Origin: a virus
Virus record (IMG/VR): IMGVR_UViG_3300045988_159430
Location: 1 to 15,643 of that record
Length of the DNA: 15,643 nucleotides
Reading direction: 5' to 3' (one strand)
Shown here one piece after another: positions 1 to 15,643 of the stretch. Position 1 is the first letter of the stretch. The number at the start of each line of letters is the position of its first letter. The translations under genes were made by a program, and so were the position numbers. The notes below the pieces were generated by a model. The model did no database searches and was not told where the DNA came from. It worked only from the letters and a program-made list of their open reading frames with translations.

Positions 1-1479
1 ACTCCAGTCATTGAAGAAAGTAATTGGTTTTTCATTTCCACTAGATGTTATCAAAGTAAATGGTTTCAAATATTCTGGAGATATTATAGTTTTAGAAGTA
101 TTAAATATAATACCATTAGATAGATAATTCTCAGCTACATTATTTAATAGAAACTCTACTCTATCAGTTTCTGGATATTTATAAGCCTTGCCAGCATAAA
201 CCATATCTCCTGCATAATCTAGATGATATTCAATAAAATCTGAACTGATTATCTCATTCCAAACATAATCTTTCCAAATAGGAGATATATCAGATTTAAC
301 AGATTGTGTAATATTAATAGATAAATTAATAATACTTGAACTATTCTTTATAACAGATACTCCAATAGTTGCTTTTCTGGAAGATAATCCTGAATTTTCT
401 GCAATGTTCAAACTAATAGTTGCTACACCTTGAGGATTCACAGTTATCTTCTGTCCACTAATCCAACCTACAGGAATGCTAAATACAACATCATCTAAGT
501 TGTTTGAGCCTGTACCAGTTATATTTAATGTAGATGCAGTTCAACTTACTTCATAATTAGTATTAGGAATCATTAAAGATGTTGCAGCTTGTTTAATTGG
601 AACTGTAGCTTCAAGAGTATAACCTCCAGAAGTTGTTGCAGTAACCATTGCACTAAACTCCAAATTATTAGTAGTTTTATTCTCTGGAACAGTTAATACA
701 AAATAGTTATCAACAATATCCTTTTTAATATTACTAGCTTGAGGGCAGGTGACATTAAATGAGGTAATTGTTTCTTCTGCTTTAGTTGTACTTAAATGGA
801 ATTCTTCAGTAACAAAAGCAGATGCTCCATAAGTTCCAGATGAAGGAGTTACTACTAGCTTTAAATCTTCTGGAGTATTACTTTTTTCAATTTTAAAGCC
901 GTAACTATAACTAATAAATTTATTAGTATCATAATAAGCTCCTAATTGGATAGTTCCAATTAAATCTGTATTTCATTGAGTATTAGCTCTTACTGTAAAT
1001 TTAAACTTAATAGAGCAAGAATCCCAATCCAGAACTTCCATATTAACTAAAGCTGTAGCATTAACAACTGCTGCATTTCATTTAATAATATCTGATCTAT
1101 TTAATATATACTCTACTGTATATTCTCCACCAGTATTTGGTACTTTAATGGTGCCATTAGCAGGATAATATCCAGGAGCTTTACTATGTAAATTAATTGG
1201 TAAATCTTCCTCTAATAAAGCAGTAGTAATGCCTCTAGGATAAAAATGAAATACAGTAGAAGAATCAGTAGTTATTGTTGTAGGAGATAAAAATTGTATT
1301 GTACATCCAGAAGTACTAGGCTCTTGTATAGTTACCTCTAAAGGCCCTTCTTCAGTATAATCATCTCCCCAAGCCCAATAATCATATTCTCCAGTAATTC
1401 CCCATCCAGGATTATTCCATTTAACAGGAAAACTCCTTGATGCGTTATATATTCCTAATTTACTTGGTATAAATGCCAT
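1..1479 (-). CDS. Large structural protein with Ig/BACON-like repeats (tail fibre or receptor-binding candidate); C-terminal end runs off the window
   Basis: ATG at 1477-1479. Track ORF 1078..1479 stops at TGA (tca 1078-1080), but I checked the same frame triplet by triplet to position 1 and found no TAA/TAG, only two more in-frame TGAs (973-975, 541-543). The read-through translation contains ...NYEVSWTASTLNITGTG...VGWISGQKITVNPQGVATISLNIAENSGLSSRKATIGVSV..., which resembles BACON/Ig-like repeats. Product call is by eye only. Confidence 0.8.
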
Positions 1480-1481
1480 TT

Positions 1482-1970
1482 TTAAAAGTTTTTAAATACA
1501 TAATAATCTACTTGTCCTTGAAGATCTTTAGTTATAGCATCATCAAGAAGCTCCATATAGTTATTTTCTATATATTCTATAGTATTTGATAATGGATGTT
1601 TACCTTGAATTCCTTGAAGATGTATCTTCCTCCCAATTAAATATGTAAGCTGATCTATTGTTGGTAACTTACCATTATAAGGTCTGGGAATAATTGGCTT
1701 AGTTTTAATCCAACTCTTTATATCATTAAGTGGAGGGAACTTACCAGAATGTCTGCCTTCTTCAACGTATTTCCAATAATCTAATAAACTAACATTAACT
1801 TCATAATCCCCATTTTGGGTCTCAACAATGTAATTTAAACTATTACCTAATAATCCAGTATCATCAGTCCTTGTTTGAACCAATTCCTGTCTATATAAAG
1901 AAATTATGAGTTCTCCTCAACGTCTTAATAACTCATTTAAATTTGGGAAATTTAGTTCTTGAATATTCAT
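1482..1970 (-). CDS. HK97 gp10-like head-tail / neck structural protein
   Basis: ATG 1968-1970, TAA 1482-1484, 162 aa. Track ORF 1482..1883 is started at a TTG and extends upstream through one in-frame TGA (1917-1919, ...LLRRWGELIISLYRQELVQTR...). The motif DTGLLGNSL...LDYWKYVEEGR resembles the HK97 gp10 family signature. Confidence 0.75.
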
Positions 1971-2013
1971 TTTTGTTAAAATATATTAATTTATAGGTTA
2001 GTATCTAAACACA

Positions 2014-2036
2014 AATAGGGAGACTTACTCCCTATT
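2014..2036 (-). terminator. GC-rich hairpin, candidate intrinsic terminator or leader hairpin next to cassette copy A
   Basis: 9-bp stem AATAGGGAG (2014-2022) / CTCCCTATT (2028-2036) with a 5-nt loop. On the minus strand it is followed by TGTGTTT. It lies between the gene ending at 2092 and the gene starting at 1970. Confidence 0.5.
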
Positions 2037-2040
2037 AAGT

Positions 2041-2089
2041 GTCAAGTTTTTTACTCAAATTTAGTAGTTAAAATAAATAAAAACTGACA
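2041..2089. repeat. 49-bp conserved intergenic cassette, copy A
   Basis: GTCAAGTTTTTTACTCAAATTTAGTAGTTAAAATAAATAAAAACTGACA. The first 28 nt are identical to copy B (7706-7754). The first 17 nt and last 15 nt are identical to copy C (15161-15209). The ends form an imperfect inverted repeat (GTCAAGTTTTT / AAAAACTGAC). Confidence 0.85.
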
Positions 2090-2091
2090 TT

Positions 2092-2876
2092 TTAATGTTT
2101 TCGTTTTCATTCTTCAATTTGTCTATTTTCTTCATTAGCTTTATCTATAACATAACAAATTGTATTTAAGAACTCTTTAATTTGCATATCATAAACTTGA
2201 TGCCAATTAAATTTAGTAACCTCACTTACTTTATCTATTCAGATAATTCAGCTTCATTTTTGAGTAAAAGGAGTAACCGTCTCATCTGTATCAGACTCCT
2301 TAGAATCTTTCTCCTTTCTAATTTGTTCTTTGTTTTCTTCAATTTCTTCTTCATCTCTCTTTCCGAAGAGTGAAGGGTACTCAGAGTTGATAGTCGCAAT
2401 AAGTTTACAAAAAAAAACATTATATCTGAAAATACATCAATTGTTAAATGATTATTCAAAAACTCTGCTTCATCCAAAGGATCATAATCTTCTCCATACT
2501 TCTTACCTTCTGGTAATAAAAAGCAAGCAGCTAGATTTGGCATATAATCATCATACTTCTTATAAAAATTCTGGAAGTCTATGTATTGACTTGCAGTCAT
2601 CTTATTAACATTAAAAAAGACTTTATATTCCCTGTCTCCAATAATATATTTAGTTTCTGGAGTTTTAGGTTTATATGTACTCTCTACAAATTTAAGATTG
2701 TTAATTAATTCTTGTAATTTATTCAGCTCCATATTTTGAATTTCTTCTAAAGAAATATCACTAAGTACAGATACCATAGCTAAATTCATATCTAATTCAT
2801 TTTCTCATTCTTTTCTAATTACATCCAATAGTTTTCTATAATGAGCTAAATTCATTTCATTCCAAGATTTTATCAT
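2092..2876 (-). CDS. Phage protein needing a -1 frame change at a T9 run (tail-assembly-chaperone-like G/GT architecture, or a homopolymer indel); about 261 aa if fused
   Basis: ATG 2874-2876 lies 1 nt after the terL TAG. In-frame TGA at 2805-2807 (...VIRKEWENELD...). Frame 0 is the track ORF 2235..2789 and ends at TAG 2235-2237. After the T9 run (2409-2417) frame 0 turns R/L-rich and uses rare codons. The -1 frame reads CKLIATINSEYPSLFGKRDEEEIEENKEQIRKEKDSK...FNWHQVYDMQIKEFLNTICYVIDKANEENRQIEEWKRKH, is open to TAA 2092-2094, and contains 4 in-frame TGAs (2254, 2248, 2239, 2107). That frame has no start codon of its own: a TAA lies 15 codons upstream of the T run. Confidence 0.6.
2409..2417 (-). 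promoter_or_regulatory. T9 homopolymer (A9 on the plus strand): candidate -1 ribosomal frameshift or transcriptional slippage site
   Basis: Minus strand reads ATG TTT TTT TTT GTA. Re-reading the last T gives TGT AAA CTT..., which is the frame with protein-like composition. A T10 run would fuse the two frames directly. Confidence 0.5.
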
Positions 2877-2877: not shown

Positions 2878-4125
2878 CTATTTAAATTTAATATTATAAT
2901 GTCCTTTAGTTGTATTTAATGAGTCATAGGCTAGCATTAATGAAATTACTGTATCATCATTAAATCCAGATGGAGCATTATAACTAATATTTCCAGTTTT
3001 TGGATTATATGAAGCTTCATATAGTCTTAACTCATTTAAAAGTTTATCATCTTTTAATAATCCTATCTTTTCATTCTCCAAAGCAGCTTGAAGCTTATTA
3101 ACTATATCTGCCTTACTCTTATTAGTAGTTAAGAATCGTATAATCCTGATTTTCGGATTCTTCTGAACTAACATATCATAGAAGACACTACCAATTGAGT
3201 TTTGTTCAACTTGCACAATCTTTATAAATCCTTGATACTCAGTTAGTATATTTGTTAATAAATCAACTTGCTCTGTTGGAGTTTTATCGTTAAAATACTT
3301 TATAAAGACCATTTGCCCAGATTCATTTAAAGCAGTAACACAAGTATAGTCTTTACCACTCCCAGTAGCCCAGTCTATTCCTATATAAAGACTCTGATAA
3401 TCTGGTTTTTTCTCAATTATGCAATTAGCTATATTATTAAATAAACATCCATCATCATCTGCAAATTCCCCTAAGTATTCGGTTCTAAATTTATTTTTTG
3501 AGGTTGTAAGTCGATACATCTCTAACTTCTCTTTATCTAAAAGCATAGATGTATCTTCTAAAGCTCAATCAAATGATTTATAGAACTTGTCATATTTCGG
3601 ATCTAACCCTTTAGTAAAGCAGTCATAAAAGAAACCCTCTCGGAACCTTGGAGTACTAATAATTAATATTGGAGCAGACCACACATCAGTAGTAGGTTTA
3701 ATAATTTCAAATACTTCATCTTTTAAGTAAGCAGCCTCATCTAATACAAGTAATCCACTTACAGAGAATCCTCGTAACGAATCCATTTGTTCTCCAGATC
3801 TAAATAATATAGAACTGCCATTATTAAACTCTAATTCAAGCAAAGTTTCATTCTTACGTTTAAGAATATCTGCTTCAGCTATAGCATTAACTATTTCTTT
3901 AAACACTTTTCTTGATTGCCCAAGAGTAGGTTCTACTATACAATTGACTGTTTTTGGATAGTTAATTGCAAATCGTAATAATTCATTTTCAGCTAAGAAA
4001 GATTTACCTACTTGTCGTTTAGCTTTAATTGTAAATATCCTTCCAGATCTATAAGCATCTGCCATAGCTATATGAACCTTATATTGGTACATAAATGGCC
4101 TATATCCTTTATATATCCTTGTCAT
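2878..4125 (-). CDS. terL: Terminase large subunit
   Basis: Track ORFs 3565..4125 and 2878..3546 are in the same frame, joined by a single TGA (3565-3567): ...KFYKSFD-W-ALEDTSMLLDKEK.... The N-terminal ATPase has Walker A KAKRQVGKS and Walker B LLVLDEAA. The C-terminal RNaseH-like nuclease begins around LYIGIDWATGSGKDYT. 415 aa, ends at TAG 2878-2880. Confidence 0.9.
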
Positions 4126-4894: not shown

Positions 4895-5224
4895 TTAATT
4901 AATAAGTTTGTATATAACATCTATCAGCTTAGTAGATGCATCTTTTAATAATATCATAATATCTTTAATAATTGGAGTCATAAATGCTAATAGTGCAATA
5001 TACCCAACCATTAAAATTGAAAATTGACTTGTAATAAGAATATATATTAATCCAATTCACCAAGTCATACATAAACTGCAATCTAAAGGTTTTAGTCTTC
5101 AATCTTCTTTATAAGGTATACCTTTAAATAGTCTTTTTCAAATACTGTGTTTAAAACTATCCAAAGCCCCAGATAAATCAATTATAAAGACTATTATTAC
5201 TGCTATTATAAATAATTCTAACAT
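4895..5224 (-). CDS. Small integral membrane protein (about 3 TM segments)
   Basis: Not in the ORF track because of 3 in-frame TGAs (5138-5140, 5099-5101, 5057-5059). ATG 5222-5224, TAA 4895-4897, 109 aa: MLELFIIAVIIVFIIDLSGALDSFKHSIWKRLFKGIPYKEDWRLKPLDCSLCMTWWIGLIYILITSQFSILMVGYIALLAFMTPIIKD.... The C-x2-C...WW membrane motif resembles DUF1360-type proteins (by eye). Confidence 0.7.
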
Positions 5225-5463
5225 AATCTCTCTCTTATTTGTTTAATAAATCTTTGAATTGTAGTATGACTAATTCCTAATATTCTTCCCACTTCTCTAT
5301 AACTGTGATATTCAGCATATAATATGATTACTGTCTTATCTGCCTTATTAAGCTCAAGTCATTTTGGATATATACTTAATAGTCTATCATCCATATTTGT
5401 AAACATACTATAGTCTATTTCATACTCAGTAAGTAAATCGTCAATATTAATCTTCCGTTTCAT
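5218..5463 (-). CDS. Sigma-70 region 4-like protein (C-terminal half of an ECF-type sigma factor, as a separate ORF)
   Basis: Not in the ORF track (in-frame TGA 5359-5361). ATG 5461-5463 is immediately preceded by an in-frame TAA. Ends at TAG 5218-5220, 81 aa: MKRKINIDDLLTEYEIDYSMFTNMDDRLLSIYPKWLELNKADKTVIILYAEYHSYREVGRILGISHTTIQRFIKQIRERLC. This matches the region 4 pattern L--L----r-v--L-----s--EIa--lgis--TV--r---a---L. Confidence 0.65.
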
Positions 5464-5755
5464 TTAATCAATCCTCCAATTCGTCATTTTGTTGTTCAAG
5501 TGGTTCTTTAACAATCTCATAATATTTCTTATAGGTATAGTAATATCTACTTGTTTTACTAAACCAATAATTCTTAAATAATCTTGTAATCCAAAATTTC
5601 AATTCATTTTTGCTATCAAGCTGATTTAATTTTGGATTTGAATACTCTAGTATTTCTACAAAAATCATTTGAACACAGTCATCATCTGCACCAAATTTTT
5701 GCTTAAGTTCCATAATAAATGGATAGTACTTTTCTACAATTTCGTTATTACTCAT
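5447..5755 (-). CDS. Sigma-70 region 2-like protein (N-terminal half of an ECF-type sigma factor, as a separate ORF)
   Basis: Track ORF 5468..5755 ends at TGA 5468-5470. Under TGA=Trp it extends 7 codons (WLNETED) to TAA 5447-5449. ...GADDDCVQMIFVEILEYSNPKLNQLDSKNELKFWITRLFKNYWFSKTSRYY... fits the ECF region 2 pattern (D-vQ--F--l ... -Wl--i--N-----R). Confidence 0.6.
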
Positions 5756-6242
5756 ATGTTCACATATATCCTCCTGCTGTTTTTCGCTGCCCTTTAAGAA
5801 CCTTTACAATATTTCTAGATTGTATATTTAGTTCTCTCTCAGCATCTATTGCTGAATCCCATCTTTTAATAACTATTCCATTTAGTAATTGCAGTATTGG
5901 TTTCTTATGACTATATCCAGCTCGCAGATTATGAGTTCCATAATTATTATTATAATTATAAGTACACCATTCTAAATTACTTACATTATTATTTGATTTA
6001 TTTTCATCCTTATGATTTATACAAGGATAGTTATTCGGATTAGATATAAAAGTTTCAGCTACTAATCTATGTATATAACACTTCTTTTTCAAATTTTTAT
6101 TATATAATGTTACTGTAAAGTACCCATTAGTTTTTACTTGAGGTTTTAACCTCTTTGGAACTGATGCTCTTAAACTTCATATTGAGCCATCAGTTCCAAT
6201 TTGGTAGTTTTCAAAATTAAGTATTCTTTTATAGGCTATCAT
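5748..6242 (-). CDS. HNH homing endonuclease (NUMOD4-like N-terminus, HNH core, IENR1/NUMOD1-like C-terminal HTH)
   Basis: Track ORF 5760..6092 is TTG-started and TGA-ended. The same frame extends upstream through TGA 6177-6179 to ATG 6240-6242 (MIAYKRILNFENYQIGTDGSIWSLRASVPKRLKPQVKTNGYFTVTLYNKN...). It extends downstream through TGA 5760-5762 to TAA 5748-5750 (...RKTAGGYM-W-TYE). HNH core: HRLVAETFISNPNNYPCINHKDENKSNNNVSNLEWCT. Confidence 0.9.
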
Positions 6243-6666
6243 TTGCTATATAATTACTAAATTCTGTATTTACATCTATCTTAATGGCTTTCTTTAAAGA
6301 CAACTCTGTTTTTAATGAATAGCCATAAGTTCCTCCAAAATCTGTTGTAGAACAACCATATTTCATAGAATCCTTTATAAAGGCTTGTTTTATATCTTTA
6401 AATATATATACTCCATCATCAAATATTATTACTAATATAGAATTATTTCTTGATAGCATATCAAATTTATCCCTATTAATAATAGTGGTTGGATATTTAT
6501 TAGAATTAAATCTTCTCCTTTTAACTTCAATTATATAATCAATTCCATTCCAATTAAATGTTCCATCATATCTGGAGTAATCGTCTTTACATCATTCTAT
6601 GTCTATATTAAATTTCTCTTTAAATAGATTCTTTGTAAAGACTAAGCTTCTTATATCTGTTTTCAT
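6229..6666 (-). CDS. Hypothetical protein, possible PD-(D/E)XK-fold nuclease
   Basis: Track ORF 6229..6459 extends upstream in frame through TGA 6592-6594 to ATG 6664-6666, which forms a TAATG overlap with the upstream gene. 145 aa. ...SRYDGTFNWNGIDYIIEVKRRR... gives a D-x14-E-x-K arrangement. The function call is weak. Confidence 0.6.
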
Positions 6667-6905: not shown

Positions 6906-6942
6906 AATTTTATTATTTATAAGTTAATACTTGTTTATTATT

Positions 6943-7000
6943 GTACTACAAAGATAATACATTTTTATTCAATTTCCAAATTTTTTAGGTATTATTTTTA
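6943..7000 (-). repeat. Left arm of a 58-bp inverted repeat (promoter duplication)
   Basis: The reverse complement TAAAAATAATACCTAAAAAATTTGGAAATTGAATAAAAATGTATTATCTTTGTAGTAC aligns without gaps to 7590-7647, with about 48 of 58 identical. The last 17 nt are nearly perfect. Confidence 0.8.
6949..6980 (-). promoter_or_regulatory. Bacteroidota-type promoter driving the leftward operon
   Basis: Minus strand: TTTG (6980-6977), a 20-nt spacer, then TATCTTTG (6956-6949). This matches the Bacteroides -33 TTTG / -7 TAnnTTTG consensus. Confidence 0.6.
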
Positions 7001-7056
7001 TTATTTTCAAAAAAATATTACTATTTGTATTTTTATTATATATTAATAAAAACAAT

Positions 7057-7542
7057 ATGATTTACGTAATTAAATTAACTAAAACGAATTTTATTAAAGT
7101 TGGTTACACTACTAATATAAGTGGCAGACTAACTGCTTATAAAAATACTATTCCAAATGAGATGATAGAATTTTTTATAGCAAAAGAAGGAAATAGAGAT
7201 GATGAAAATTATTATAGAGATAAATATAGAGCATATAAAACTAAGAGTAATTCAGAATGGTTAAAACTTCCAGATGAATTAATTGTAGAGCTATTAGCAG
7301 ATTTTAAGAGTGCAAATAATATAAAAATAAATAAACAAAGCAAAAAAGAATGATATAATGAGAATATAGATAAATTAGTAGAATTGTGCTTATCTGGAGT
7401 ATCATTAAATAGAGCTGCAATTCAATTAAATGCACTAAATTGAGACTGAATAAAATATGCTAATCAAAGATACGAAAAAGAGAATGGCAAAAAATTAACA
7501 AAACTTTGGGTAAGAAAAATCAAGAAAAGTTTTGCAGAATAA
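7057..7542 (+). CDS. T5orf172-domain (GIY-YIG superfamily) protein with a C-terminal HTH-like domain
   Basis: Track ORF 7057..7353 ends at TGA. The same frame continues through TGAs at 7351-7353, 7441-7443 and 7447-7449 to TAA 7540-7542, 161 aa. N-terminus: IYVIKLTKTNFIKVGYTTNISGRLTAYKNT...SEWLKLPDE (T5orf172 pattern). C-terminus: WYNENIDKLVELCLSGVSLNRAAIQLNALNWDWIKYANQRYEKENGKKLTKLWVRKIKKSFAE. Confidence 0.8.
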
Positions 7543-7589: not shown

Positions 7590-7647
7590 TAAAAATAATA
7601 CCCGAATTATTTGGAAATTTAATTTTTATGTATTATCTTTGTAGTAT
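7590..7647 (+). repeat. Right arm of the 58-bp inverted repeat (promoter duplication)
   Basis: TAAAAATAATACCCGAATTATTTGGAAATTTAATTTTTATGTATTATCTTTGTAGTAT is the inverted copy of 6943-7000. Confidence 0.8.
7610..7641 (+). promoter_or_regulatory. Bacteroidota-type promoter (P2), rightward twin of the leftward promoter
   Basis: TTTG 7610-7613, a 20-nt spacer, then TATCTTTG 7634-7641. Confidence 0.6.
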
Positions 7648-7784: not shown

Positions 7785-9506
7785 ATGAAAACATATTTAA
7801 ACAATTTGATTAATGAGTTGCCAACTAACTGTTTATTTGATAAAGGAAAAGTTGGATGTGGAGGAACTTCAATGGCAATTGAATGTAATAAGCCTTATGT
7901 TATTTGTGTTCCATTTACTAGCTTAGTTGAAAATAAACTTCAACAATATCCAAATGAAAGACGTACTGAGAAGATATTTGGAGTTTATGCTGGAGTTACT
8001 ATTAAAGAGATTAAAGATTACGTAGAGAGTGTTAAATGTCCTAAAATTATTGTTACATATAACTCACTTCCAAAAGTTATTTCTGCAGTTAATACTAAAG
8101 AATATAGTTTATTAGTAGATGAATATCATATACTATTTAATCAGTATAGCTTTAGAAAGGATGCTATTAAACCTGTTTTAGAGAACTATGAATTATTTAA
8201 AGATTTTACATTTATGACTGCTACTCCTCTTGAAGAAGAGTTTGTATTAGATGAATTAAAAGATTTAGAATTAGTAAAGCAAGAATGGGATGATGTTATT
8301 GAAACCAAGGTACAAGCCGTTAAATGTAAGAATGTTGAAGCTTCAACTATTAAATTAATTAATGCTGTTCTTAATAATCAAGTCGAAGGTAATGTTTATA
8401 TATTTGTAAATTCTGTAGACTTTATAAAGAATCTTATTCAGAAAGCTAAACTTACAGAAGAGAATACCAGAGTTATATATTCCAAAAACAATAAAACCAA
8501 ATTATCAATTCATAATTCTACAGTATTAGATGAACCTAAGAAAATAAATTTATTAACTTCTACAGTATTTGAAGGTTCTGATATTTATGATGAAAATGGA
8601 AGAATTGTAGTAGTAAGTGATGCTCAAAAAGCACAAACTCTTCTTGACATCTCAACTTCAATCCAACAGATTGCTGGCAGAATTAGAAATAGTAAATATT
8701 TAAACTGGATAACTCATCTTTACTCAGCAACAAGATATGCAGATATTAGTTATGAAGACTTTAAAAAGAAGAATATCCAGAATATTGAGGAAACTAAGAT
8801 TGCTGTAGATGCTTACAATGCAATGCCTGAAGTTGCAAGAAAGAAACTTAAAGAATTTACATCTGATACTTATATCCAAGTAAATGATGATTTTACATTT
8901 ACATTTGATCCAAATATGGCTAAGGTAGATATTTTTAACTTTAAAGTGACAAGAGGTTTATATTCTATTAGAACGAATCTTAATAAAGAATATATAAAGA
9001 ACGGATTTAAAAAAGTAGTAGAATGTGAAGACAACTCTATTAAGATTGATTTTGAATCTGATAATAAACCATTTAAAGAACTAATTAAAGAAGTTAGAAC
9101 AGAATGGGAAAATAAATTTAAACTGAATACTCCACTCTTAAATGATGCTATTATTAAATATCCTTGGTTACCAGAAGCTATTAGTAAATTAGGATTCGAA
9201 AAGATGGCAAGCTTGAAATATTGCATTTCGGATATTAAAGATGCTCTATTAAAGAAATCAAATAAAAGTGCAGATAATAAAGCAGCTAAGAAGTTAAATC
9301 AATCAATTACTCTTGGAATGTGGTATTCTAACGCTGATATTAAAAAGTTTGTTAAAGAAGCTTATGAAATTAGTGATATTACTATTACTCCAAAAGCAAC
9401 AGAAATTGATAAATATTATGAAGTTAAAAAATGCCAGAAAAGAGTAAATGGTAAACAAACTGAAGGTTATGTAATTATTAATAAAAAGTTTGTATTTAAT
9501 AAATAA
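7785..9506 (+). CDS. Superfamily 2 (DExH-type) helicase, replication/early module
   Basis: 573-aa intact ORF ending at TAA. Motif I GKVGCGGTS, motif II LLVDEYH, motif III MTATP, motif VI QQIAGRIRN. No in-frame TGA; it has 5 TGG Trp codons. Confidence 0.85.
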   Translation: MKTYLNNLINELPTNCLFDKGKVGCGGTSMAIECNKPYVICVPFTSLVENKLQQYPNERRTEKIFGVYAGVTIKEIKDYVESVKCPKIIVTYNSLPKVISAVNTKEYSLLVDEYHILFNQYSFRKDAIKPVLENYELFKDFTFMTATPLEEEFVLDELKDLELVKQEWDDVIETKVQAVKCKNVEASTIKLINAVLNNQVEGNVYIFVNSVDFIKNLIQKAKLTEENTRVIYSKNNKTKLSIHNSTVLDEPKKINLLTSTVFEGSDIYDENGRIVVVSDAQKAQTLLDISTSIQQIAGRIRNSKYLNWITHLYSATRYADISYEDFKKKNIQNIEETKIAVDAYNAMPEVARKKLKEFTSDTYIQVNDDFTFTFDPNMAKVDIFNFKVTRGLYSIRTNLNKEYIKNGFKKVVECEDNSIKIDFESDNKPFKELIKEVRTEWENKFKLNTPLLNDAIIKYPWLPEAISKLGFEKMASLKYCISDIKDALLKKSNKSADNKAAKKLNQSITLGMWYSNADIKKFVKEAYEISDITITPKATEIDKYYEVKKCQKRVNGKQTEGYVIINKKFVFNK

Positions 9507-9520: not shown

Positions 9521-9524
9521 TGAT

Positions 9525-9686
9525 ATGGAAGGAGATATTAAAGAAACAATTAAACAAACAGAAGAGTATATTAAAGAATTGGATAAATGAATACTTGAGT
9601 GTAAAGAAGCTACTAAAAGATTTGGTGATATTATAGATAAAGTATTAAAAAATAAAGATTATATGTTTATTTCTAAATTTGATTAA
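9525..9686 (+). CDS. Small hypothetical protein (53 aa)
   Basis: ATG 9525, in-frame TGA 9588-9590, TAA 9684-9686: MEGDIKETIKQTEEYIKELDKWILECKEATKRFGDIIDKVLKNKDYMFISKFD. Absent from the ORF track because of the TGA. Followed 2 nt later by the next ATG. Confidence 0.5.
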
Positions 9687-9688
9687 TT

Positions 9689-9829: not shown

Positions 9830-9830
9830 T

Positions 9831-9974
9831 ATGAAATATCAAACCTATAAAGTATGCATAAATGGAGTGTATTATGTATATGTAATACCAGAAAATAGTA
9901 GGTTTTTAGTGGACTTACAAACAGGAGATTTAATACCTAAAGAAGATGATAAATTATTTGAAATGATGGAATAA
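9831..9974 (+). CDS. Small hypothetical protein (47 aa)
   Basis: ATG 9831, TAA 9972-9974: MKYQTYKVCINGVYYVYVIPENSRFLVDLQTGDLIPKEDDKLFEMME. Last gene before the convergent terminator. Confidence 0.5.
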   Translation: MKYQTYKVCINGVYYVYVIPENSRFLVDLQTGDLIPKEDDKLFEMME

Positions 9975-9979
9975 ATGAA

Positions 9980-10005
9980 AATAGGAGGGCATAAACCCTC
10001 CTATT
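9980..10005. terminator. Bidirectional intrinsic terminator between convergent modules
   Basis: 10-bp stem AATAGGAGGG (9980-9989) / CCCTCCTATT (9996-10005) with loop CATAAA. T-rich tracts follow on both strands (TTCTGTTT on plus, TTTTCATTT on minus). It sits between the plus-strand stop at 9974 and the minus-strand stop at 10011. Confidence 0.7.
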
Positions 10006-10010
10006 TCTGT

Positions 10011-10580
10011 TTAAGCGTATTTTCAAATGTATCCTTTAGATGTTTGCTTTAATCCACTACATACTCTACTAATGGCTCCTCTATCAGTTCCTACTGCATT
10101 AGCCGCTTCAGTACAGCTTTCATATTCCTTAATAAAGTTTCCCTCTAAATCATATTGTAAAACCTTTTTACATCTTTTCTTATTATGAATTTCATTACTA
10201 ATCTTCCAAGGCAAACTATATAAATGTTTCTTACCTTTATTTGATTCTGATAGTTTCTTTCTTCATTCTGTAGAAAATTTTATTCCATAGTTGCCACCTT
10301 CACCTCCTGGCTTCAAGTTTAAACACATTGGATCTACTTCCCATTTATCTCCTATTAATTCATACTCCTTTTTAGATAATTCATCTGAATCATTACAGAA
10401 TGCAATTATTTCTTTTTTATATGCATTAGGAAATCTTTTATAGTAGTTCTTAATAATTTTACCAGAACCTTTATATGGATCTTTATATGGGTCTTTTCCT
10501 TTATAAATACGCTTACCAATGTAATATTTTCCTCTCAATGAGCCAGCAGTTAAATAAATTTTATAACAATAGTAAAACAT
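10011..10580 (-). CDS. GIY-YIG homing endonuclease (GIY-YIG core, NUMOD3-like linker, IENR1/NUMOD1-like HTH)
   Basis: Track ORFs 10263..10580 and 10023..10214 are in the same frame, joined by TGA 10263-10265 (...GIKFSTE-W-RKKLSESNKGKKHLYSLPWK...). The second ORF ends at TGA 10023-10025 and continues to TAA 10011-10013 (...TSKGYI-W-KYA). Core: YCYKIY...GKYYIGKR...EYELIG...CLNLKPGGEGG. 189 aa. TAATG overlap with the endolysin stop. Confidence 0.9.
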
Positions 10581-11032
10581 TATATAATTGTAAATTTCTG
10601 TCTTCTCTGCAAACCCTCTTTATTCTTCAGTCCTAAATGAATTCAACTAGCTATTCCATTTCTAGGTTTCTCATAAATAAGTTGATCAAAATCATACTTT
10701 TCAATAGCTTCAGTAATCCAAACCTGAAATTCTTTCATTTGGCCGTTACTTGGAATTATATCTGCTGCATATCCTGTTAGATGGGCAGATGTCAAAGATC
10801 CTCCTACAGCTTTATTAAGCTCATTACATCTATAACCTGAATTCACACTTATTGCTGGATTCCCCAACCGATTAACATCACAATACTCTGCCCAATCACT
10901 TCTTAATGGGTCTAAAAGTTTCTCGACTAACTCTATAAGGTGTTCAGTAATCTCTTTATTTGGAGTATTATCTATCTTCTTAATAGAAGCTGTATCAGAT
11001 CTTGTTAATTCACTAATAGTAAAATATTTCAT
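10580..11032 (-). CDS. Endolysin, peptidase M15 family (zinc D-Ala-D-Ala carboxypeptidase / L-Ala-D-Glu peptidase-like)
   Basis: Track ORF 10643..11032 ends at TGA 10643-10645 and continues to TAA 10580-10582 (...PRNGIAS-W-IHLGLKNKEGLQRRQKFTII). Motifs SGYRCNELNKAVGGSLTSAHLTGYAADI are typical of M15 peptidases. 150 aa. Confidence 0.9.
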
Positions 11033-11193
11033 TATTTAATAATATCTTTAAGCATAGTATAACGGTAAAATAAATGACATCCTGCACCAAGTGCTATGAG
11101 TACTAATGTAATCCAAAATGGAATTACTTTTACCATTAAAAATACTAAGATTATAATTACTATTGCTATTAAATATTTCATCCAATATTTCAT
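11032..11193 (-). CDS. Holin candidate (53 aa, two TM segments)
   Basis: ATG 11191-11193 (alternative ATG 11179-11181). TAA 11032-11034 forms a TAATG overlap with the endolysin start. MKYWMKYLIAIVIIILVFLMVKVIPFWITLVLIALGAGCHLFYRYTMLKDIIK. Too short for the ORF track. The call rests on position and topology only. Confidence 0.6.
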   Translation of the reverse strand: MKYWMKYLIAIVIIILVFLMVKVIPFWITLVLIALGAGCHLFYRYTMLKDIIK

Positions 11194-11196
11194 AAC

Positions 11197-11850
11197 TTAT
11201 TTATTTAAAATTATACTTACTTTAATTCCTGCATCTCTTAGTTTTACTCAAGTATCAACTGGCATCTCATTATCACAATAAGATAAGCCTAAAATTCCAA
11301 TATCTCTATCTTCTGATTTTAAATAGAATATTGCAATCTTATTAACATCATTAGATTTAAATGAATAATACATTCTTCTATCTAATTCCTTTATATCTTC
11401 AACATCTCCAAATCATCCTCCTTTTTTAGATGTTTCCAATATAAATAAATAATCAGATAATAGGAAGTCTTTATAGTGACTTGAAACTGGAGCAACTCCA
11501 GGTTCTGTTTCTTCACTATTCATAATTCCATAAGTGAATGGTAATCCTCCTAATCCTGAAGTGCCATTATGATACTCAATAACTCAAGCTCTATCTGCAT
11601 TCGTATCATTTAAAAGGTCTTTAAGGATATATCTAACCTTAAGATCCGCTTCTTGTCGTATTACTTGATTAGTATTATGAACTGTTTCTATATAACTTAC
11701 AACTTTATCATATATTATTCCTGGATTAGTACTTATAATTATTACATAAGAAATAAATATAAATCCAAATCCACCTTTAATTATTTTCCACAGTCCATAT
11801 TTATCTACTCATTCTAATACCTTTCCAAACCAGTTTAATTTATTTTCCAT
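11197..11850 (-). CDS. Membrane-anchored protein of unknown function, first gene of the lysis cluster
   Basis: Absent from the ORF track: 4 in-frame TGAs (11809-11811, 11584-11586, 11413-11415, 11248-11250). I translated every codon from ATG 11848-11850 to TAA 11197-11199, 217 aa: MENKLNWFGKVLEWVDKYGLWKIIKGGFGFIFISYVIIISTNPG...DRAWVIEYHNGTSGLGGLPFTYG...KKGGWFGDVEDIKELD...MPVDTWVKLRDAGIKVSIILNK. One N-terminal TM segment. Confidence 0.7.
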
Positions 11851-12275
11851 TACATATTATCAGAACAAGTACCCAGAGTGTTGTCTACAGCTAAATCAAC
11901 TCTAACAAATACTCCAGTACAAATATCTTTGAACTTCTGATAAAATGGAGTAAAAATTAAAGGATAAGAAATATCAACTTCTGGATATTGGTTATTAAAT
12001 CGGTTAATTATATTAGTTAATGCTAATATTCCAGCTGATTGCTCTTCAAGCTGATTATTATCAGTCTCATCCCATCTTGCTATAAAATAGAGATTTAAAG
12101 AGTAAGTAATAGTATCCTCATCCATATTAAATGTATTTGGAGTTATATAAAATACATTATATTCAATAGTTGGGATACTATTAAGTTCATATATATCCTT
12201 ACTTCCTACAAAATTAATATTGGGTTCTTCAAGAGCACAAGCTTTTAAATTGTTTATTAATTCAAAATACGTCAT
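11850..12275 (-). CDS. Hypothetical structural (neck/tail-completion?) protein
   Basis: Track ORF 11850..12377 overlaps the upstream gene by about 100 nt. The internal ATG 12273-12275 (MTYFELINNLK...) lies 1 nt after the upstream TAA and is the more likely start. 141 aa, ends at TAA 11850-11852. Confidence 0.65.
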   Translation of the reverse strand: MTYFELINNLKACALEEPNINFVGSKDIYELNSIPTIEYNVFYITPNTFNMDEDTITYSLNLYFIARWDETDNNQLEEQSAGILALTNIINRFNNQYPEVDISYPLIFTPFYQKFKDICTGVFVRVDLAVDNTLGTCSDNM

Positions 12276-12276
12276 T

Positions 12277-12954
12277 TTACTTACTCTTTTTATTGTTATC
12301 ACTTGAAGGGAAATCATAAGCTCTTTGCAGAGGACCTTCACAAGAATTATATCTCCAACCTTTACCTCTAGCTCCACCTAACCAAATAGTGCAAGATGAA
12401 CTTGAATACATATTTGGATACATATCTTTAAGAGGTTTATAAGAATACAATTCAGGAAAATCATTATAATATGTAATTACCCAATTTTGCAATCTAGTTT
12501 TAAAGAAATCTGCTTTATCTCTATAATACTTCTTAATAAGATTAACTTGATTAATATCAGAAGTTAAATCTTTCTCATCATCAGTCCTCATAACCCCAAA
12601 ATTACTCAGCTTAAATGAGATGGGTATAGTAATCTCACTTAATACTTGATAAAGTAAATAAGGCTGAATATAGTAATCTAGCAATTCTTTATATCTATGA
12701 TTTTCTGGGTCATCTATTGAAGTAGGATCATAAATAGGAGGTTCTATTGGATGAACTGGTTTATTTGGATCTTTTCAATCAATTACTAATTTCTGAATCT
12801 TTTCTAAGAGCTTAGTTCCAATTAATGACTGAAGCTCAATATCTTGTGCAAGTTTAATTGCTGACTGAAGATATTTACCAGAAACATTATTGTCTAAATT
12901 GGATTCTGATTTTATATAATCTTCAGATATTAATAGTACATTTCTATATTCCAT
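12277..12954 (-). CDS. Head-tail connector / adaptor-like protein (gp6-like N-terminus)
   Basis: Track ORF 12277..12684 is TTG-started and extends upstream through TGA 12775-12777 to ATG 12952-12954: MEYRNVLLISEDYIKSESNLDNNVSGKYLQSAIKLAQDIELQSLIGTKLLEKIQKLVIDWKDPNKP.... This N-terminal pattern resembles head-tail connector proteins. 225 aa, ends at TAA. Confidence 0.7.
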
Positions 12955-13597
12955 AATAATATTTATAATTTTTGCAGGGTTTATTTTTTCTACAAGATCT
13001 AGATATACTAGAAGAATCTACATTATTCTTCTCTCCAGCTTCCTTAGCTGATTTATACTCACAAATAAAATTACCATCTAAATCATACTTATATACTTTT
13101 TTGCACTGACGTTCTGAAATTAGTTGTTTTTCTTTATCTGAGAGTTTCATACCTTTATTTCAAGGAGTTTTGCCTAATCTTGCCTCCCTCATTTTACGCT
13201 TGCTTTCATCTGAATGCTGTTTACCATAAAATGAGTTATTTTCTCCTGATCTTATAATTCTAAGACTATCTTTATAATCTTGTGAAAAAGAATATCCACA
13301 AGTACCGTCTCCTCCATCAGTTAAATTATACCCATATTTTGGATTTCTAGTATTATACTTATAAATCAGAATCTTTTCTAAAGTCTTAGCACAAGCTTCT
13401 GGAAGATTATCTCTAATTATAATATGCTCAAAATTATCTCAACCATATTTTTTAATTGCTCTGCTAAAATAAAGATTATTCTTGTAACCTTGACCTTTAG
13501 TTCCCCATCTATTATTTAAAGTAAGTGATGTTATTCCAAAATATAATTTATTATCAGCTATATTCTTATGGCAGTACACTGTATAATTATTCAACAT
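12944..13597 (-). CDS. GIY-YIG homing endonuclease inserted between the portal and connector genes
   Basis: Track ORF 12944..13150 is only the C-terminal HTH. The same frame continues upstream through TGAs 13160-13162 and 13439-13441 to ATG 13595-13597. 217 aa: MLNNYTVYCHKNIADNKLYFGITSLTLNNRWGTKGQGYKNNLYFSRAIKKYG-W-DNFEHIIIRDNLPEACAKTLEKILIYKYNTRNPKYGYNLTDGGDG...ENNSFYGKQHSDESKRKMREARLGKTP-W-NKGMKLSDKEK.... Ends at TAG 12944-12946. Confidence 0.9.
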
Positions 13598-14678
13598 TTT
13601 CTGCATTGTCTGACATTCCTTTTGGAGTTAAACTAAATGGTTCAATAGTAATACTATTCTTAATGCCGAAGATTTTATCAAATGAGTCACAAATTTCTGA
13701 TTGTATTGGGCGTACAAAAGTACGATTATATAGCTTAAATGCTTCATTAAACTCATTTTCATTAAATCCTGAGCTATAGTTTAAACCGAACAACGAAGGA
13801 TTAGCTCTGAAGGCACAGAATATTTGATCTCTGGTTCTCTCAGATAATGATTGATATTTCTCATCAAAATCATCAGAATCTAATCTTTCAATAGTAGTCT
13901 TATTTGCCTCATCTGCATTATATGAAATCAATATTCTGCCAGCATTCTGATAACCAGAGAACTTCTCATTAATATTCCTCTCAATCTCCTCTCTAATTTC
14001 ATCTGTAGGTTCCCCATTATTAAAGTTAATAATAAGATTACCCATAAATCCATTATTGATGTTATTTAAATGGAATTCATTAATATTTTTCTCAGTTTCA
14101 CAAGATAAAATAGCAGCTCCATAAACAGGAATAGGATATACTCCTCTTGTTATATAACCTTTATTATAAAATATACTAGCTGGATTTTCATCCCCAGCTC
14201 CAAATTTTGGATATTTTATAGCTTTTACAGACCAAGCTGTCCAATCAGTTGCATAATATAATATATCATTCTTTTCGCTTGACCTTACATTCATAAAATC
14301 AATATGATATATCTCTGCAACTCTTCCGAGCATATCTCTAATTACTTGGATAGCATAACCTCCAAATATCATCTTATCAATAGTGATTTTTCTCATTATA
14401 TCAACTATTGTTTCACCTTTCTTGTTTACAACTACTTCAAATCCTGGAGCATTACATTTAACATCGTTACCAACAATAAAGTCAGCAGAACCATTAATAA
14501 TGGATTGGAGAGTGGCAACATTTAAATATAAATCCCATAGATATAATGGATATTTGTTATCTTCTCCCCACATTACATAATCTTTTCCCCTCACTTTAGT
14601 TTCTGTAGGTAATACGATATTACTTGCAATAAATGGATCAATAGCACTTAACTGAACTTTTGTTTTATTTTCGCTCAT
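13587..14678 (-). CDS. Portal protein
   Basis: 363-aa intact ORF (ATG 14676-14678, TAA 13587-13589). ...YVMWGEDNKYPLYLWDLYLNVATLQSIINGSADFIVG..., GGYAIQVIRDMLGRVAEIYHIDFMNVR, NNGFMGNLIINFNNGEPTDEIREEIERNINEKFSGYQNAGRILISY...DEKYQSLSERTRDQIFCAFRANPSLFGL match the Phage_portal / PBSX-type portal pattern by eye. Confidence 0.85.
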   Translation of the reverse strand: MSENKTKVQLSAIDPFIASNIVLPTETKVRGKDYVMWGEDNKYPLYLWDLYLNVATLQSIINGSADFIVGNDVKCNAPGFEVVVNKKGETIVDIMRKITIDKMIFGGYAIQVIRDMLGRVAEIYHIDFMNVRSSEKNDILYYATDWTAWSVKAIKYPKFGAGDENPASIFYNKGYITRGVYPIPVYGAAILSCETEKNINEFHLNNINNGFMGNLIINFNNGEPTDEIREEIERNINEKFSGYQNAGRILISYNADEANKTTIERLDSDDFDEKYQSLSERTRDQIFCAFRANPSLFGLNYSSGFNENEFNEAFKLYNRTFVRPIQSEICDSFDKIFGIKNSITIEPFSLTPKGMSDNAENVE

Positions 14679-15057
14679 AACTTACGTATGTATTAGGTTT
14701 GTCGTATTGATAATTATTATTCTCATAATCTCCAATTCTTATTAATCCTGTTCCCAATATAGGTATTGGTTTACCAGCAACTAATATCTGAGTACCATTA
14801 GTAAGAGTATTATTATATGTAACCAGAATAACTGGATTGCCATATAACTCTGATCTAAATGGATTGTTTACATCAACTATAACTTGAAATTTATTTGGAT
14901 TAGTAAATAAAATATATTGATATTCACCGTCTCTCATTCCTTCTTGAAGTGTAATATCAAACTTATAGTAGATATTCTCAGAATAATTCTGATTTTCAAG
15001 ATTAAATGTATAAACTTCTTTAGTAGTTGTATTTTGCATTAATAAAGTATAATTCAT
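14665..15057 (-). CDS. Hypothetical protein upstream of the portal gene
   Basis: 130-aa intact ORF, ATG 15055-15057, TAA 14665-14667, with a 14-nt overlap with the portal start. First gene downstream of cassette copy C. No recognisable motif. Confidence 0.7.
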   Translation of the reverse strand: MNYTLLMQNTTTKEVYTFNLENQNYSENIYYKFDITLQEGMRDGEYQYILFTNPNKFQVIVDVNNPFRSELYGNPVILVTYNNTLTNGTQILVAGKPIPILGTGLIRIGDYENNNYQYDKPNTYVSYERK

Positions 15058-15132
15058 ATTTTACAGCAATTTACATTAGTTTTACATATCTTTTTCTTAA
15101 AATATAAACCAATTTACTAATGTATTAAAATA

Positions 15133-15160
15133 ATTAAAGGAGACCTAAGCCTCCTTTAAT
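15133..15160 (-). terminator. GC-containing hairpin abutting cassette copy C (candidate terminator or leader hairpin)
   Basis: 10-bp stem ATTAAAGGAG (15133-15142) / CTCCTTTAAT (15151-15160) with an 8-nt loop. On the minus strand it is followed by TTATTTTAAT. Confidence 0.5.
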
Positions 15161-15209
15161 GTCAAGTTTTTTACTCACTCAAAGTACTAAGAAAAAATAA
15201 AAACTGACA
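15161..15209. repeat. 49-bp conserved intergenic cassette, copy C
   Basis: GTCAAGTTTTTTACTCACTCAAAGTACTAAGAAAAAATAAAAACTGACA. The 17-nt 5' block and 15-nt 3' block are identical to copy A, and the centre diverges. Confidence 0.85.
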
Positions 15210-15213
15210 AAAA

Positions 15214-15643
15214 TTATGCTGATGCTAAAGTTCAGTTTTTAGATGCAGCTAATGATTTCTGTTCCTCAGTAAGTGCATTATAAACATCTGCTGCAAATTG
15301 AATGGTTTGAGATACTTCTCCAGTTAAATCAGCAGCTTTATTTAGAATATTATCAATAGCCAAAGAATTAAGACTTGGCAGTTTACTTAAATCTAAATAC
15401 GTTTTTAACCCTACTATTCCTCCCATATCAGTTATATAAGTATTATCGGAAGATCAGCTATAAAATGGCCAATTAGAAAAGTTTTGTCCTGCTGCACTTA
15501 TATTTGTAACATCTCATTCAGGAAGTTCAGTTATATTATCAGGCAATTGTTCGTAGAATCCTCCTATTTCCATATTAATTACATTACCCGTAATATTAAA
15601 TTTCATAGTTGGTAATATTGTCACTCTATCTTTTTGAACTCCA
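15214..15643 (-). CDS. Structural or surface protein, N-terminus outside the window (possible DUF285/BspA-like leucine-rich repeat element)
   Basis: Track ORF 15232..15426 ends at TGA 15232-15234 and continues to TAA 15214-15216 (...AASKN-W-TLASA). Upstream the frame stays open to the window edge through TGAs 15454-15456 and 15514-15516 (...ITELPE-W-DVTNISAAGQNFSNWPFYS-W-SSDNTY...). The ELPEWDVTNIS segment resembles the W-D-v-S-n-V repeat of DUF285 proteins. This is a weak call. Confidence 0.7.

Follow-up and report, generated by a model that had tools for sequence, protein, structure and literature searches.

The DNA analysed here, which we call the window, is a 15,643-nt stretch of viral sequence (IMG/VR record IMGVR_UViG_3300045988_159430) that makes up about half of the ~31-kb genome of a tailed, siphovirus-like phage. 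We find that the genes of this phage almost certainly read TGA as tryptophan (genetic code 4), judging from codon swaps between related genomes, from the residues found in distant homologs and from coding density, and the same proposal made in an earlier sequence-only reading of the window is thereby borne out. Annotation under the standard code (table 11) breaks 17 of the 27 genes of the window, among them those for the terminase and the endolysin, the latter losing its His132. The phage belongs to a lineage that offers a compact case for studying recoding without a phage tRNA, since it has 38 genes, is frequent in assemblies and leaves a short list of TGA-free genes.

Gene structure with TGA as a sense codon

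Read with the standard code, the window breaks up into 62 short open reading frames (ORFs) and several ORF-free stretches. Taking TGA as sense raises the non-overlapping coverage by ORFs of at least 60 aa from 64.3% to 83.3% (87.7% at ORFs of at least 50 aa) and the mean ORF length from 152 to 207 aa, so that coding density and gene length both rise when table 4 is used in place of table 11. The gain in coding density amounts to 19-23 points in the window and 21 points in a complete related genome, c085915, whereas the control of taking TAG as sense gave a coverage of 67.6%, a gain of only 3-5 points. Four stretches that the sequence-only reading had described as ORF deserts turn into continuous genes (1-1479; 4895-5224 plus 5218-5463; 11197-11850; 12944-13606).

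Our own table-4 gene model of the window has 27 ORFs, 26 of them complete; three tiny ORFs (2092-2187, 6924-7055 and 7628-7729), each with one TGA, were rejected from it. The model contains 31 in-frame TGA codons, spread over 17 of the 27 genes, together with 48 in-frame TGG codons, which makes TGA 39% of the tryptophan codons. The 17 genes and a TGA share of about 40% had been put forward before and both stand; the earlier count of 35 TGAs does not, and the three rejected ORFs, if counted, would explain most of the difference. Each TGA that had been singled out by position (3565, 10263, 7351/7441/7447, 13439, 5760, 10023 and 10643) is indeed in frame. The 26 complete genes end in TAA (22) or TAG (4, in the genes at 2235, 2878, 5218 and 12944) and never in TGA, as had been claimed, although the TAG at 2235 had been missed; family-wide, too, stops are only TAA or TAG. 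Gene packing is close, with 19 of the 26 junctions between -20 and +18 nt, so that the tight spacing of 0-17 nt proposed earlier holds for most junctions and fails for the seven larger ones, which comprise gaps of 264, 89, 151, 242, 36 and 156 nt and one overlap of 92 nt. Gene calls for this phage in a public collection have the same table-4 lengths (415 aa for terL, 150 aa for the endolysin), and the Pfam Terminase_6N match in terL (residues 37-231) runs across the TGA at residue 188. Gene structure indicates that TGA is read as sense everywhere in the window and terminates no gene.

Were the TGAs real stops, the genes that they interrupt would be pseudogenes, products of assembly error or genes expressed as fragments. 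Table 11 does list the fragments as separate ORFs, and shortened M15 peptidase calls of 127-129 aa are present in public databases; yet dozens of independent assemblies have TGA at identical positions, the frame beyond each TGA continues for hundreds of codons, protein domains extend across the TGAs and the invariant His132 of the M15 peptidase lies beyond one of them. We regard this explanation as refuted by the conservation of the TGA sites and the continuity of the domains, and leave it practically no probability.

The residue encoded by TGA

The codons at the 31 TGA sites of the window were compared with those of 18 related genomes, where they are TGA 266 times, TGG 26 times, TAT 14 times, TGC or TGT 4 times and TAA once. 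At the TGG sites of the window, conversely, the relatives have TGG 472 times, TGA 47 times and other codons 20 times. Since each codon swaps to the other, TGA and TGG behave as synonymous; the replacements that change the residue give Tyr or Cys. The stops of the window correspond in the relatives to TAA/TAG swaps or to sense codons, never to TGA.

Alignments with distant homologs lead to the same residue. At each TGA column that was tested in a well-conserved protein family, tryptophan outnumbers any other residue; glycine was seen once, in a single distant terL. In the endolysin gene (Pfam Peptidase_M15_3, 150 aa, 10580..11032, minus strand), the TGA at 10643 encodes residue 130, and all 25 homologs at 44-59% identity have tryptophan in this column. 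Two residues further on lies the invariant His132, which we take to be a zinc ligand of the M15 family; because it is downstream, a protein stopping at the TGA would miss a universally conserved residue. Public databases hold both 129-aa shortened and 150-aa calls of this gene. Two columns are covered by 115 homologs of the GIY-YIG/NUMOD3 homing-endonuclease-like protein (220 aa, 12944..13606, minus strand; recognised by Pfam): at residue 56 (TGA at 13439) 77 of them have W, 35 E, two I and one D, and at residue 149 (TGA at 13160, in NUMOD3) W has the plurality with 38. In the terminase large subunit (terL, 415 aa, 2878..4125, minus strand; Pfam Terminase_6N at 37-231 and Terminase_6C at 248-401) the TGA at 3565 is TGG in 3 and TGA in 15 close relatives; among more distant relatives that use the standard code, L019 and L020 have W in this column, and L021 has G. 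The NUMOD tail of the gene at 10011-10580 likewise has its TGA aligned with W in L019.

The glycine of L021, together with the existence of code-25 phages in human microbiomes (10.1101/2021.08.26.457843), is what could be said for a residue other than tryptophan, be it selenocysteine or the glycine of code 25 (Absconditabacteria and Gracilibacteria). No GGN codon occurs at any of the 31 TGA sites in the 18 relatives, however; what replaces TGA there is chiefly TGG and, less often, TAT or TGY. All 25 M15 homologs have W in the column, both GIY-YIG columns hold W more often than any other residue, and 31 sites in 15.6 kb are far too many for selenocysteine. The codon-swap data refute both residues, and we give them only a very slight chance.

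Origin of the reassignment among relatives

Relatives of the window were gathered from IMG/VR scans with terL and portal (62 loci) and from a look-up of the exact portal protein (10 more). Most of these 72 loci belong to one family of ~30-kb contigs, and five relative contigs among them were rebuilt end to end. One of the relatives, c085915 (joined from L051 and L014), is 31,151 bp long and, as it has a 119-bp terminal repeat, is a complete genome. Table 4 in place of table 11 gives it a coding density of 95% instead of 74%, with 38 genes instead of 49 and a mean gene length of 264 instead of 159 aa. It contains head, tail, fibre, lysis and packaging genes plus a small plus-strand module, and its recognised non-structural genes are limited to a helicase-like gene, T5orf172, homing endonucleases and small regulators.

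Other relatives bear on how the change arose. Five of them (L019, L020, L021, L061 and L062; 28-43% terL or portal identity to the window) have a coding density of 94-98% under table 11, which table 4 shifts by only -1.3 to +0.7 points, and TGA is a true stop in 12 of their 66 complete genes. L060, at 63% portal identity, is recoded like the window. Because these five use the standard code while L060 does not, we conclude from the sequence comparison that TGA reassignment is a derived trait of the lineage to which the window belongs.

The phage family recurs in many public metagenome assemblies; in one of them, ENA ERZ505314, the contig NODE_67 has a coverage of 323x. The exact portal protein was found in 118 blocks of a public collection, every contig being shorter than 50 kb; the sequence lies on 59 public contigs, the longest of 32,290 bp. 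This restriction of the portal to contigs below 50 kb indicates that the family is a free phage rather than a prophage. No integrase was found among the genes recognised in c085915, and the portal-protein look-ups gave no prophage copy. The one very long contig with the phage family is L054 (IMG/VR contig 3300045988_175865; 148,631 bp), of which the 21 kb read are collinear with the 31-kb genome and consist entirely of recoded phage genes. We considered whether L054 is a prophage in a host chromosome and rejected this, as all of the 21 kb is phage and the exact-protein look-ups never hit a contig above 50 kb; it may be a concatenated bin or an assembly artefact, and it offers no clue to the host.

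GenBank holds a close relative as "Siphoviridae sp. ctuCR5". Megablast of the whole window against GenBank phages gave no match, and tblastn of terL gave only remote matches below 30% identity (Halorubrum, Thermus and Pseudomonas phages), which at that identity were rejected as a clue to the host.

Uneven use of TGA across genes

Other two-fold codon pairs that differ in a final A or G end in A in 72-86% of cases, compared with 39% for tryptophan, so TGA is used about half as often as composition predicts. By strand, TGA makes up 4 of the 12 tryptophan codons on the plus strand of the window and 27 of the 67 on the minus strand.

Larger differences appear when TGA is counted over the distinct variants of each gene family. 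The early helicase-like gene of superfamily 2 (SF2) (573 aa, 7785..9506, plus strand), which is the sole large non-structural gene of the window and has 0 TGA and 5 TGG there, has TGA at 1 of 107 tryptophan codons among 23 family variants. TGA is similarly rare in the families of the major capsid protein (1/123), of the 174-aa protein whose gene adjoins that of the capsid (1/46) and of the scaffold (0/20), and is infrequent in the protease (3/30) and in the portal (20/145). At the other end of the scale, the family share of TGA is 0.81 and 0.96 in the fibres, 0.61-0.71 in the homing-endonuclease genes, which is above the genome average, and 0.47 in a 1118-aa tail protein. A permutation test of heterogeneity among the genes of one genome gives P = 0.024.

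Another feature of TGA use is the base after the codon, which is A after 50% of TGA and 31% of TGG codons; with n = 48 this bias is too weak, and we rejected context-dependent read-through as its meaning.

TGA appears, from these counts, to be a usable but costly codon. If so, it would be kept out of the gene that an unmodified host ribosome translates first, namely that of the 573-aa helicase-like protein, and out of the head genes (capsid, scaffold and protease), which we assume to be the most highly expressed. The pattern is not a simple early/late split, because the head genes avoid TGA as well: recoding affects the fibre, tail and lysis genes but hardly those for capsid, scaffold and protease, and TGA is present in genes behind a host-type promoter. 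The sequence-only reading had held that recoding is not purely a late-gene phenomenon. This stands for T5orf172, the ORF at 9525 and the leftward operon after the host-type promoter, and fails for the main early gene at 7785-9506 (1/107), whose freedom from TGA would fit, by analogy, the standard-code early gene of published recoded phages.

The host and its genetic code

The recoding is probably specific to the phage and takes place on a walled Bacteroidales host that itself uses the standard code. Under this reading a standard-code Bacteroidales cell would be infected by a phage that has TGA read as tryptophan and ends its genes in TAA or, less often, in TAG; since such a host is the most likely one, the recoding would be a property of the phage rather than something inherited from a code-4 host. 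The uneven use of TGA described above seems to fit suppression in a standard-code cell better than it fits a native code-4 host.

Besides the peptidoglycan peptidase and the holin-like gene, which speak for a walled host, three indirect lines of sequence evidence point to the Bacteroidales. Firstly, a scan of 185,579 species genomes for relatives of the endolysin, with a 9-sequence M15 alignment, kept 80 loci, 72 of them from Bacteroidota, and the 30 best were all from Bacteroidales. Secondly, the primary-sigma consensus of Bacteroidota is TTTG at -33 and TAnnTTTG at -7 (PMC7366714), and the pattern TTTG-N18-21-TAnnTTTG has 4 matches in the window where 0.69 are expected, a number reached by 1 of 200 shuffles. 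One of these promoter-like sites, TTTG-N20-TATCTTTG (6949..6980, minus strand), lies upstream of the leftward operon and is kept in c085915; a second (7610..7641, plus strand) lies upstream of the 573-aa gene; and two weaker ones (7531-7561 and 9489-9520, both plus strand) complete the set. All four are in the early region, point to a downstream gene and lie outside the called genes, save for overlaps with the ends of T5orf172 (its final 12 nt) and of the 573-aa gene (its final 18 nt), and two of them recur in place in c085915, at ~89% DNA identity. Thirdly, a Shine-Dalgarno-like core precedes only 4 of the 26 genes, compared with a background of 9%, and such scarcity fits what is expected for Bacteroidota.

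Several points weigh against a standard-code Bacteroidales host. The host is assigned only indirectly, and the taxonomic neighbours of the endolysin give only a hint, because genes of this kind are exchanged among phages. Over the whole of c085915 the promoter pattern is not enriched (2 matches, ~1 expected), so that only position and conservation count there. Within the window TGA is spread over genes almost uniformly (17 genes observed, 17.1 expected), and the family-level counts of TGA are not phylogenetically independent, although tryptophan codons flip freely in the other genes. Lastly, the 1118-aa tail protein has 11 TGAs and needs efficient UGA decoding, which is hard to square with a standard-code host and the lack of a phage tRNA, and which a code-4 host would explain.

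Mycoplasma and Spiroplasma are the well-known code-4 bacteria and have no cell wall; we know of no code-4 member of the Bacteroidales. A host that is itself code 4, be it one of this kind or an unrecognised gut lineage, would simply share its code with the phage. It would account for the failure to detect a tRNA across the family or a release-factor or synthetase domain in the proteins scanned, for the presence of TGA in two thirds of the genes, including those that follow a host-type promoter, and for the match of the TGA spread within the window to uniform use; moreover, Mycoplasma or Spiroplasma is the host of 22 of the 27 cultured phages for which table 4 is predicted (PMC11210395). The phage, however, encodes a peptidoglycan peptidase with its invariant residues and, in the adjacent gene, a holin-like protein, which argues against the wall-less Mollicutes, and the promoter-like sites, scarce Shine-Dalgarno cores and endolysin relatives point to Bacteroidales instead. 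TGA is used at half its compositional rate (0.39 compared with 0.72-0.86), and its avoidance in the helicase-like and head genes would be unexpected for an ordinary codon in a genome of 28% G+C. On balance we consider a code-4 host unlikely.

Two other loci, in assemblies assigned to Bacteroidales, look recoded in the same way. A phage-like region of 29% G+C (L140; NZ_KB905697.1, 150,381-156,716) lies in a 388-kb scaffold of the cultured Bacteroidales Proteiniphilum acetatigenes DSM 18083; table 4 lifts the coding density of the 6.3 kb read from 69% to 95%, and the M15 peptidase gene there contains 2 TGA but no TGG codon. It looks TGA-recoded and is possibly a cultured system for TGA recoding; a related recoded sequence in a cultured assembly could open the question to experiment. 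On a 143-kb contig binned as Phocaeicola dorei (L076; CAVGUB010000111.1), a region of 31% G+C has a coding density that rises from 51% to 94% under table 4, and 32 TGA to 8 TGG codons; it would be a prophage or else part of a large recoded phage contig that was binned with Phocaeicola.

The source of UGA decoding

Neither the window nor any of the 72 family loci, among them the five whole contigs (one with a terminal repeat), yielded a tRNA with ARAGORN, and Rfam at E<=1 gave no tRNA or tmRNA in the window and the complete relative. The sequence-only reading had suggested a look for a tRNA with anticodon UCA in the complete genome, and ARAGORN found no tRNA in the complete relative. At 90% thresholds and in mitochondrial mode ARAGORN gave no consistent candidate. 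At an 80% threshold it reported 6-13 "tRNAs" per genome, which were rejected for their poor stems and cloverleaves and their position inside genes; a "tRNA-SeC(tca)" at 12740-12837 was rejected because it simply reads the in-frame TGA at 12775 from the opposite strand. Scanned with Pfam and PHROG, the proteins of the window, together with five head and fibre proteins of the relative, showed neither a release-factor nor an aminoacyl-tRNA-synthetase domain. Code-change machinery is not what defines the family, because 65-85% of the code-4 phages in published surveys are without a suppressor tRNA.

TGA is already present in the sigma-like genes downstream of the host-type promoter. Because of this, and because no tRNA was detected in any phage of the family, the capacity to decode UGA would have to come from the host, from one of the few TGA-free early products or from a factor carried in the virion.

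An RNA that escaped these searches might also do the decoding in a standard-code host, either a non-canonical or split phage tRNA or a suppressor supplied by a co-resident prophage or a co-infecting recoded phage. Suppressor tRNAs are seen in only 35% (10.1101/2021.08.26.457843) or 15% (PMC11210395) of code-4 phages, the authors of the former study suspect that non-canonical tRNAs escape detection, and the window has conserved, strongly folding non-coding gaps (z = -3.0 and -4.1) with a repeated 70-nt element. As set out above, though, neither ARAGORN in its default, 90% and mitochondrial settings nor Rfam offered a candidate, those of the 80% threshold have poor cloverleaves and lie inside genes, and the folded gaps resemble terminator hairpins followed by an A/T-rich palindrome, not a tRNA. 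We judge a missed RNA of this kind to be rather improbable.

The repeat itself, of ~70 nt, occurs at 2019-2089, 7684-7754 and 15139-15209, in three of the long non-coding gaps (the conserved gaps 1971-2234, 7543-7784 and 15058-15213), always in plus-strand orientation. Each copy begins with a terminator-like hairpin rich in G+C; after this comes an imperfect palindrome, rich in A/T, with TGTCAAG...TGACA as its bounds. Those gaps that hold the first and third copies fold unusually well (z = -3.0 and -4.1, respectively). The genes that the copies precede are the tail operon, the 573-aa gene and the portal operon; the repeat is not tRNA-like and may be a regulatory or late-promoter element.

Taken at its strongest, the reading of a recoded phage on a standard-code Bacteroidales host is that a phage of 31 kb and 38 genes decodes UGA as tryptophan efficiently in such a cell without a tRNA of its own. 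We offer this tentatively and hold it to be on the unlikely side. If it is so, two routes can be envisaged. By the first, a phage protein would re-tune host termination or host tRNA-Trp, for which only TGA-free early products are candidates: mainly the 573-aa SF2 helicase-like protein, with a 79-aa protein as the other (early genes without TGA lie at 7785-9506 and 6666-6905). By the second, the host would have an unrecognised, latent capacity to read UGA. Either route would amount to a tRNA-independent way of changing the genetic code.

The 573-aa helicase-like protein

The family of the 573-aa protein is large, with 1,597 cluster representatives matching at E<=0.001, and sequence searches of Pfam, NCBIfam, PHROG and the PDB gave it no family name. 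Its AlphaFold2 model (predicted local distance difference test score, pLDDT, 80.6) consists of an SF2 helicase core of two domains and, C-terminal to it, a helical part. Its best fold matches in the PDB are DEAD-box RNA helicases such as DbpA, Dbp10 and Vasa (E ~1e-8, template-modelling score 0.35-0.5), and some of the matched DEAD-box structures are bound to ribosomal particles. In the model, fold similarity is too low to tell an RNA from a DNA helicase, and a role in replication would be the ordinary reading.

A homolog that is 45% identical and has no in-frame recoded stop is encoded by a prophage with a different recoding (L153; ENA ERZ28598220, 132-kb contig, locus 5,900-21,740), which lies beside standard-code host genes and an integrase. 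The prophage is TAG-recoded: its coding density is 70% under table 11 and 90% with TAG as sense, its terL has 13 in-frame TAGs, and TGA is still a stop. The closest named relatives of the adjoining host genes are from Lentimicrobium (Bacteroidota). The helicase-like gene is the only one that this prophage and the phage of the window have in common.

Downstream of the promoter-like site at 7610-7641 and ahead of the 573-aa gene, which starts at 7785, a hairpin (GGCAGG-TGAAAAT-CCTGCC, then a T run; window 7650-7700) looks like a terminator or attenuator in the leader of this early gene.

Comparison with known recoded phages

TGA-to-tryptophan recoding in gut phages has already been published (10.1101/2021.08.26.457843; PMC11210395). 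Borges et al. (10.1101/2021.08.26.457843) described code-4 clades of low G+C, with a preference for TAA, standard-code hosts and a suppressor tRNA in 35%; Cook et al. (PMC11210395) found table 4 in 0.08% of gut viral operational taxonomic units, with a suppressor tRNA in 15% of the table-4 phages; and Gulyaeva et al. (PMC9610469) reported 21 TGA-recoded contigs among 58,776. The phage of the window belongs, with good support, to these known code-4 recoded gut phages; with their clades it is compared here by description. What sets it apart from the described code-4 clades is its small size, its likely Bacteroidales host, the lack of a detectable code-change gene and the avoidance of TGA in head genes.

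With the Jade and Agate clades (10.1101/2021.08.26.457843) it shares the alignment of TGA with tryptophan, low G+C, a preference for TAA and a predicted standard-code host. In both, structural and lysis genes often contain the recoded codon and a gene of presumed replication type can be read with the standard code; most such genomes, moreover, have no detectable suppressor tRNA. However, Jade and Agate genomes are ~127-200 kb long, some with predicted Firmicutes hosts, compared with 31 kb and 38 genes for the phage of the window. Two Jade genomes have a code-change operon (tRNA-UCA, tryptophanyl-tRNA synthetase and release factor 1), of which none was detected in the phage of the window, and, unlike in these clades, its major capsid, scaffold and protease genes also avoid TGA.

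In size and likely host the phage resembles the TAG-recoded Garnet and Amethyst clades (~34 kb, with a Garnet prophage in Prevotella among them; 10.1101/2021.08.26.457843), which likewise combine a small genome and a Bacteroidetes host with structural and lysis genes in one recoded block. In both cases a key early gene is free of the recoded stop; this gene is the integrase in Garnet and Amethyst and the helicase-like gene in the phage of the window, whose family has no integrase among the genes recognised in c085915. The codes themselves differ, TAG being read as Gln with TGA still a stop in Garnet and Amethyst, and TGA as tryptophan with TAG still a stop in the lineage of the window. The TAG-recoded prophage L153 resembles the published Garnet prophages.

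The crAss-like phages (e.g. Suoliviridae; PMC11210395, PMC10136315) have Bacteroidales hosts, as is likely for the phage of the window, and like it show stop reassignment in part of the genome, but they are podovirus-like, are ~100 kb in size, encode polymerases of their own and in many cases carry suppressor tRNAs. The phage of the window showed no relationship to them in sequence, the tblastn search with terL having given only remote matches. Phages of Mycoplasma and Spiroplasma also read TGA as tryptophan and need no suppressor tRNA. Their hosts are wall-less, in contrast to the endolysin, the Bacteroidota-type promoter-like sites, the scarce Shine-Dalgarno cores and the under-use of TGA in the phage of the window.

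Other features of the window

The remaining genes are described in the order of the window. A tail protein (1..1479, minus strand) runs off the left end and is present with the N-terminal 493 aa of what is a 726-aa homolog in relatives; it has 9 TGG codons and TGAs at 1078, 973 and 541. In relatives the site at 973 is TGG in 7 and TGA in 10, and that at 541 is TGA in 12, TAT in 3 and TGG in 2. Next to it lies a neck/tail-completion-like protein of 162 aa (1482..1970, minus strand; a weak PHROG match to phrog_5, tail completion/Neck1), whose TGA at 1917 corresponds to Tyr in the standard-code L019 and L020 and to TAT in 11 and TGA in 6 of the close relatives. An unknown protein of 213 aa with a TAG stop (2235..2876, minus strand) has a TGA at 2805, where relatives have TGA in 10, TGG in 2, TGY in 4 and TAA in 1. 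PHROG gave no useful name for most of the unknown window proteins.

To the right of terL are genes of the leftward operon region, all on the minus strand. A small membrane protein of 109 aa (4895..5224) has TGAs at 5138, 5099 and 5057 and a family TGA share of 0.62. It is followed by a helix-turn-helix/sigma-70 region-4-like protein of 81 aa (5218-5463; Pfam HTH_50 and Sigma70_r4_2; TGA 5359) and an overlapping gene for a 102-aa protein with no family match (5447-5755; TGA 5468). This pair (5218-5755), which follows a host-type promoter, could be a phage late-gene transcription factor, to judge from its domains and position. Then come an HNH/NUMOD homing-endonuclease-like protein of 164 aa (5748..6242; Pfam HNH_3, NUMOD4 and I-HmuI_NUMOD-like; TGAs 6177 and 5760; family share 0.61) and, as second gene of the operon, an unknown protein of 145 aa (6229..6666; TGA 6592).

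The plus-strand module holds, besides the helicase-like gene, a T5orf172/MUG113-type gene by Pfam match (161 aa, 7057..7542; TGAs 7351, 7441 and 7447; family share 0.71), which is present in only part of the relatives, and a small ORF of 53 aa (9525..9686) with a TGA at 9588 that is kept in 10 relatives.

Back on the minus strand, a NUMOD1 homing-endonuclease-like protein of 189 aa (10011..10580; Pfam NUMOD1 and I-HmuI_NUMOD-like; TGAs 10263 and 10023) precedes the endolysin, which adjoins the holin-like gene (11032-11193); this in turn adjoins a membrane-anchored protein of 217 aa (11197..11850; TGAs 11809, 11584, 11413 and 11248), in which the sites at 11584 and 11413 are TGG in 2 relatives. 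A DUF6712 protein of 225 aa, recognised by Pfam (12277..12954), has a TGA at 12775 that is TGG in 4 and TGA in 6 relatives. Beyond the GIY-YIG/NUMOD3 gene lies the portal protein (363 aa, 13587..14678; Pfam Phage_portal), with 0 TGA and 4 TGG and a family TGA share of 0.14.

Four homing-endonuclease-type genes are thus found in 15.6 kb (one HNH, one T5orf172 and two GIY-YIG/NUMOD), and their presence varies among close relatives. Because of their in-frame TGAs, these genes as written would be expressible only in a TGA-decoding cell.

The right end of the window is the C-terminal part of a fibre-like protein (15214..15642, minus strand; TGAs 15514, 15454 and 15232) that runs off the window, and the homologous 323-aa family has a TGA share of 0.81. 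It ends in the motif LTEEQKSLA-SKNWTLA, as do several fibre-like proteins encoded by the genes at 6923-13522 of c085915; a shared C-terminus of this kind looks like an exchangeable cassette of receptor-binding proteins with one attachment module.

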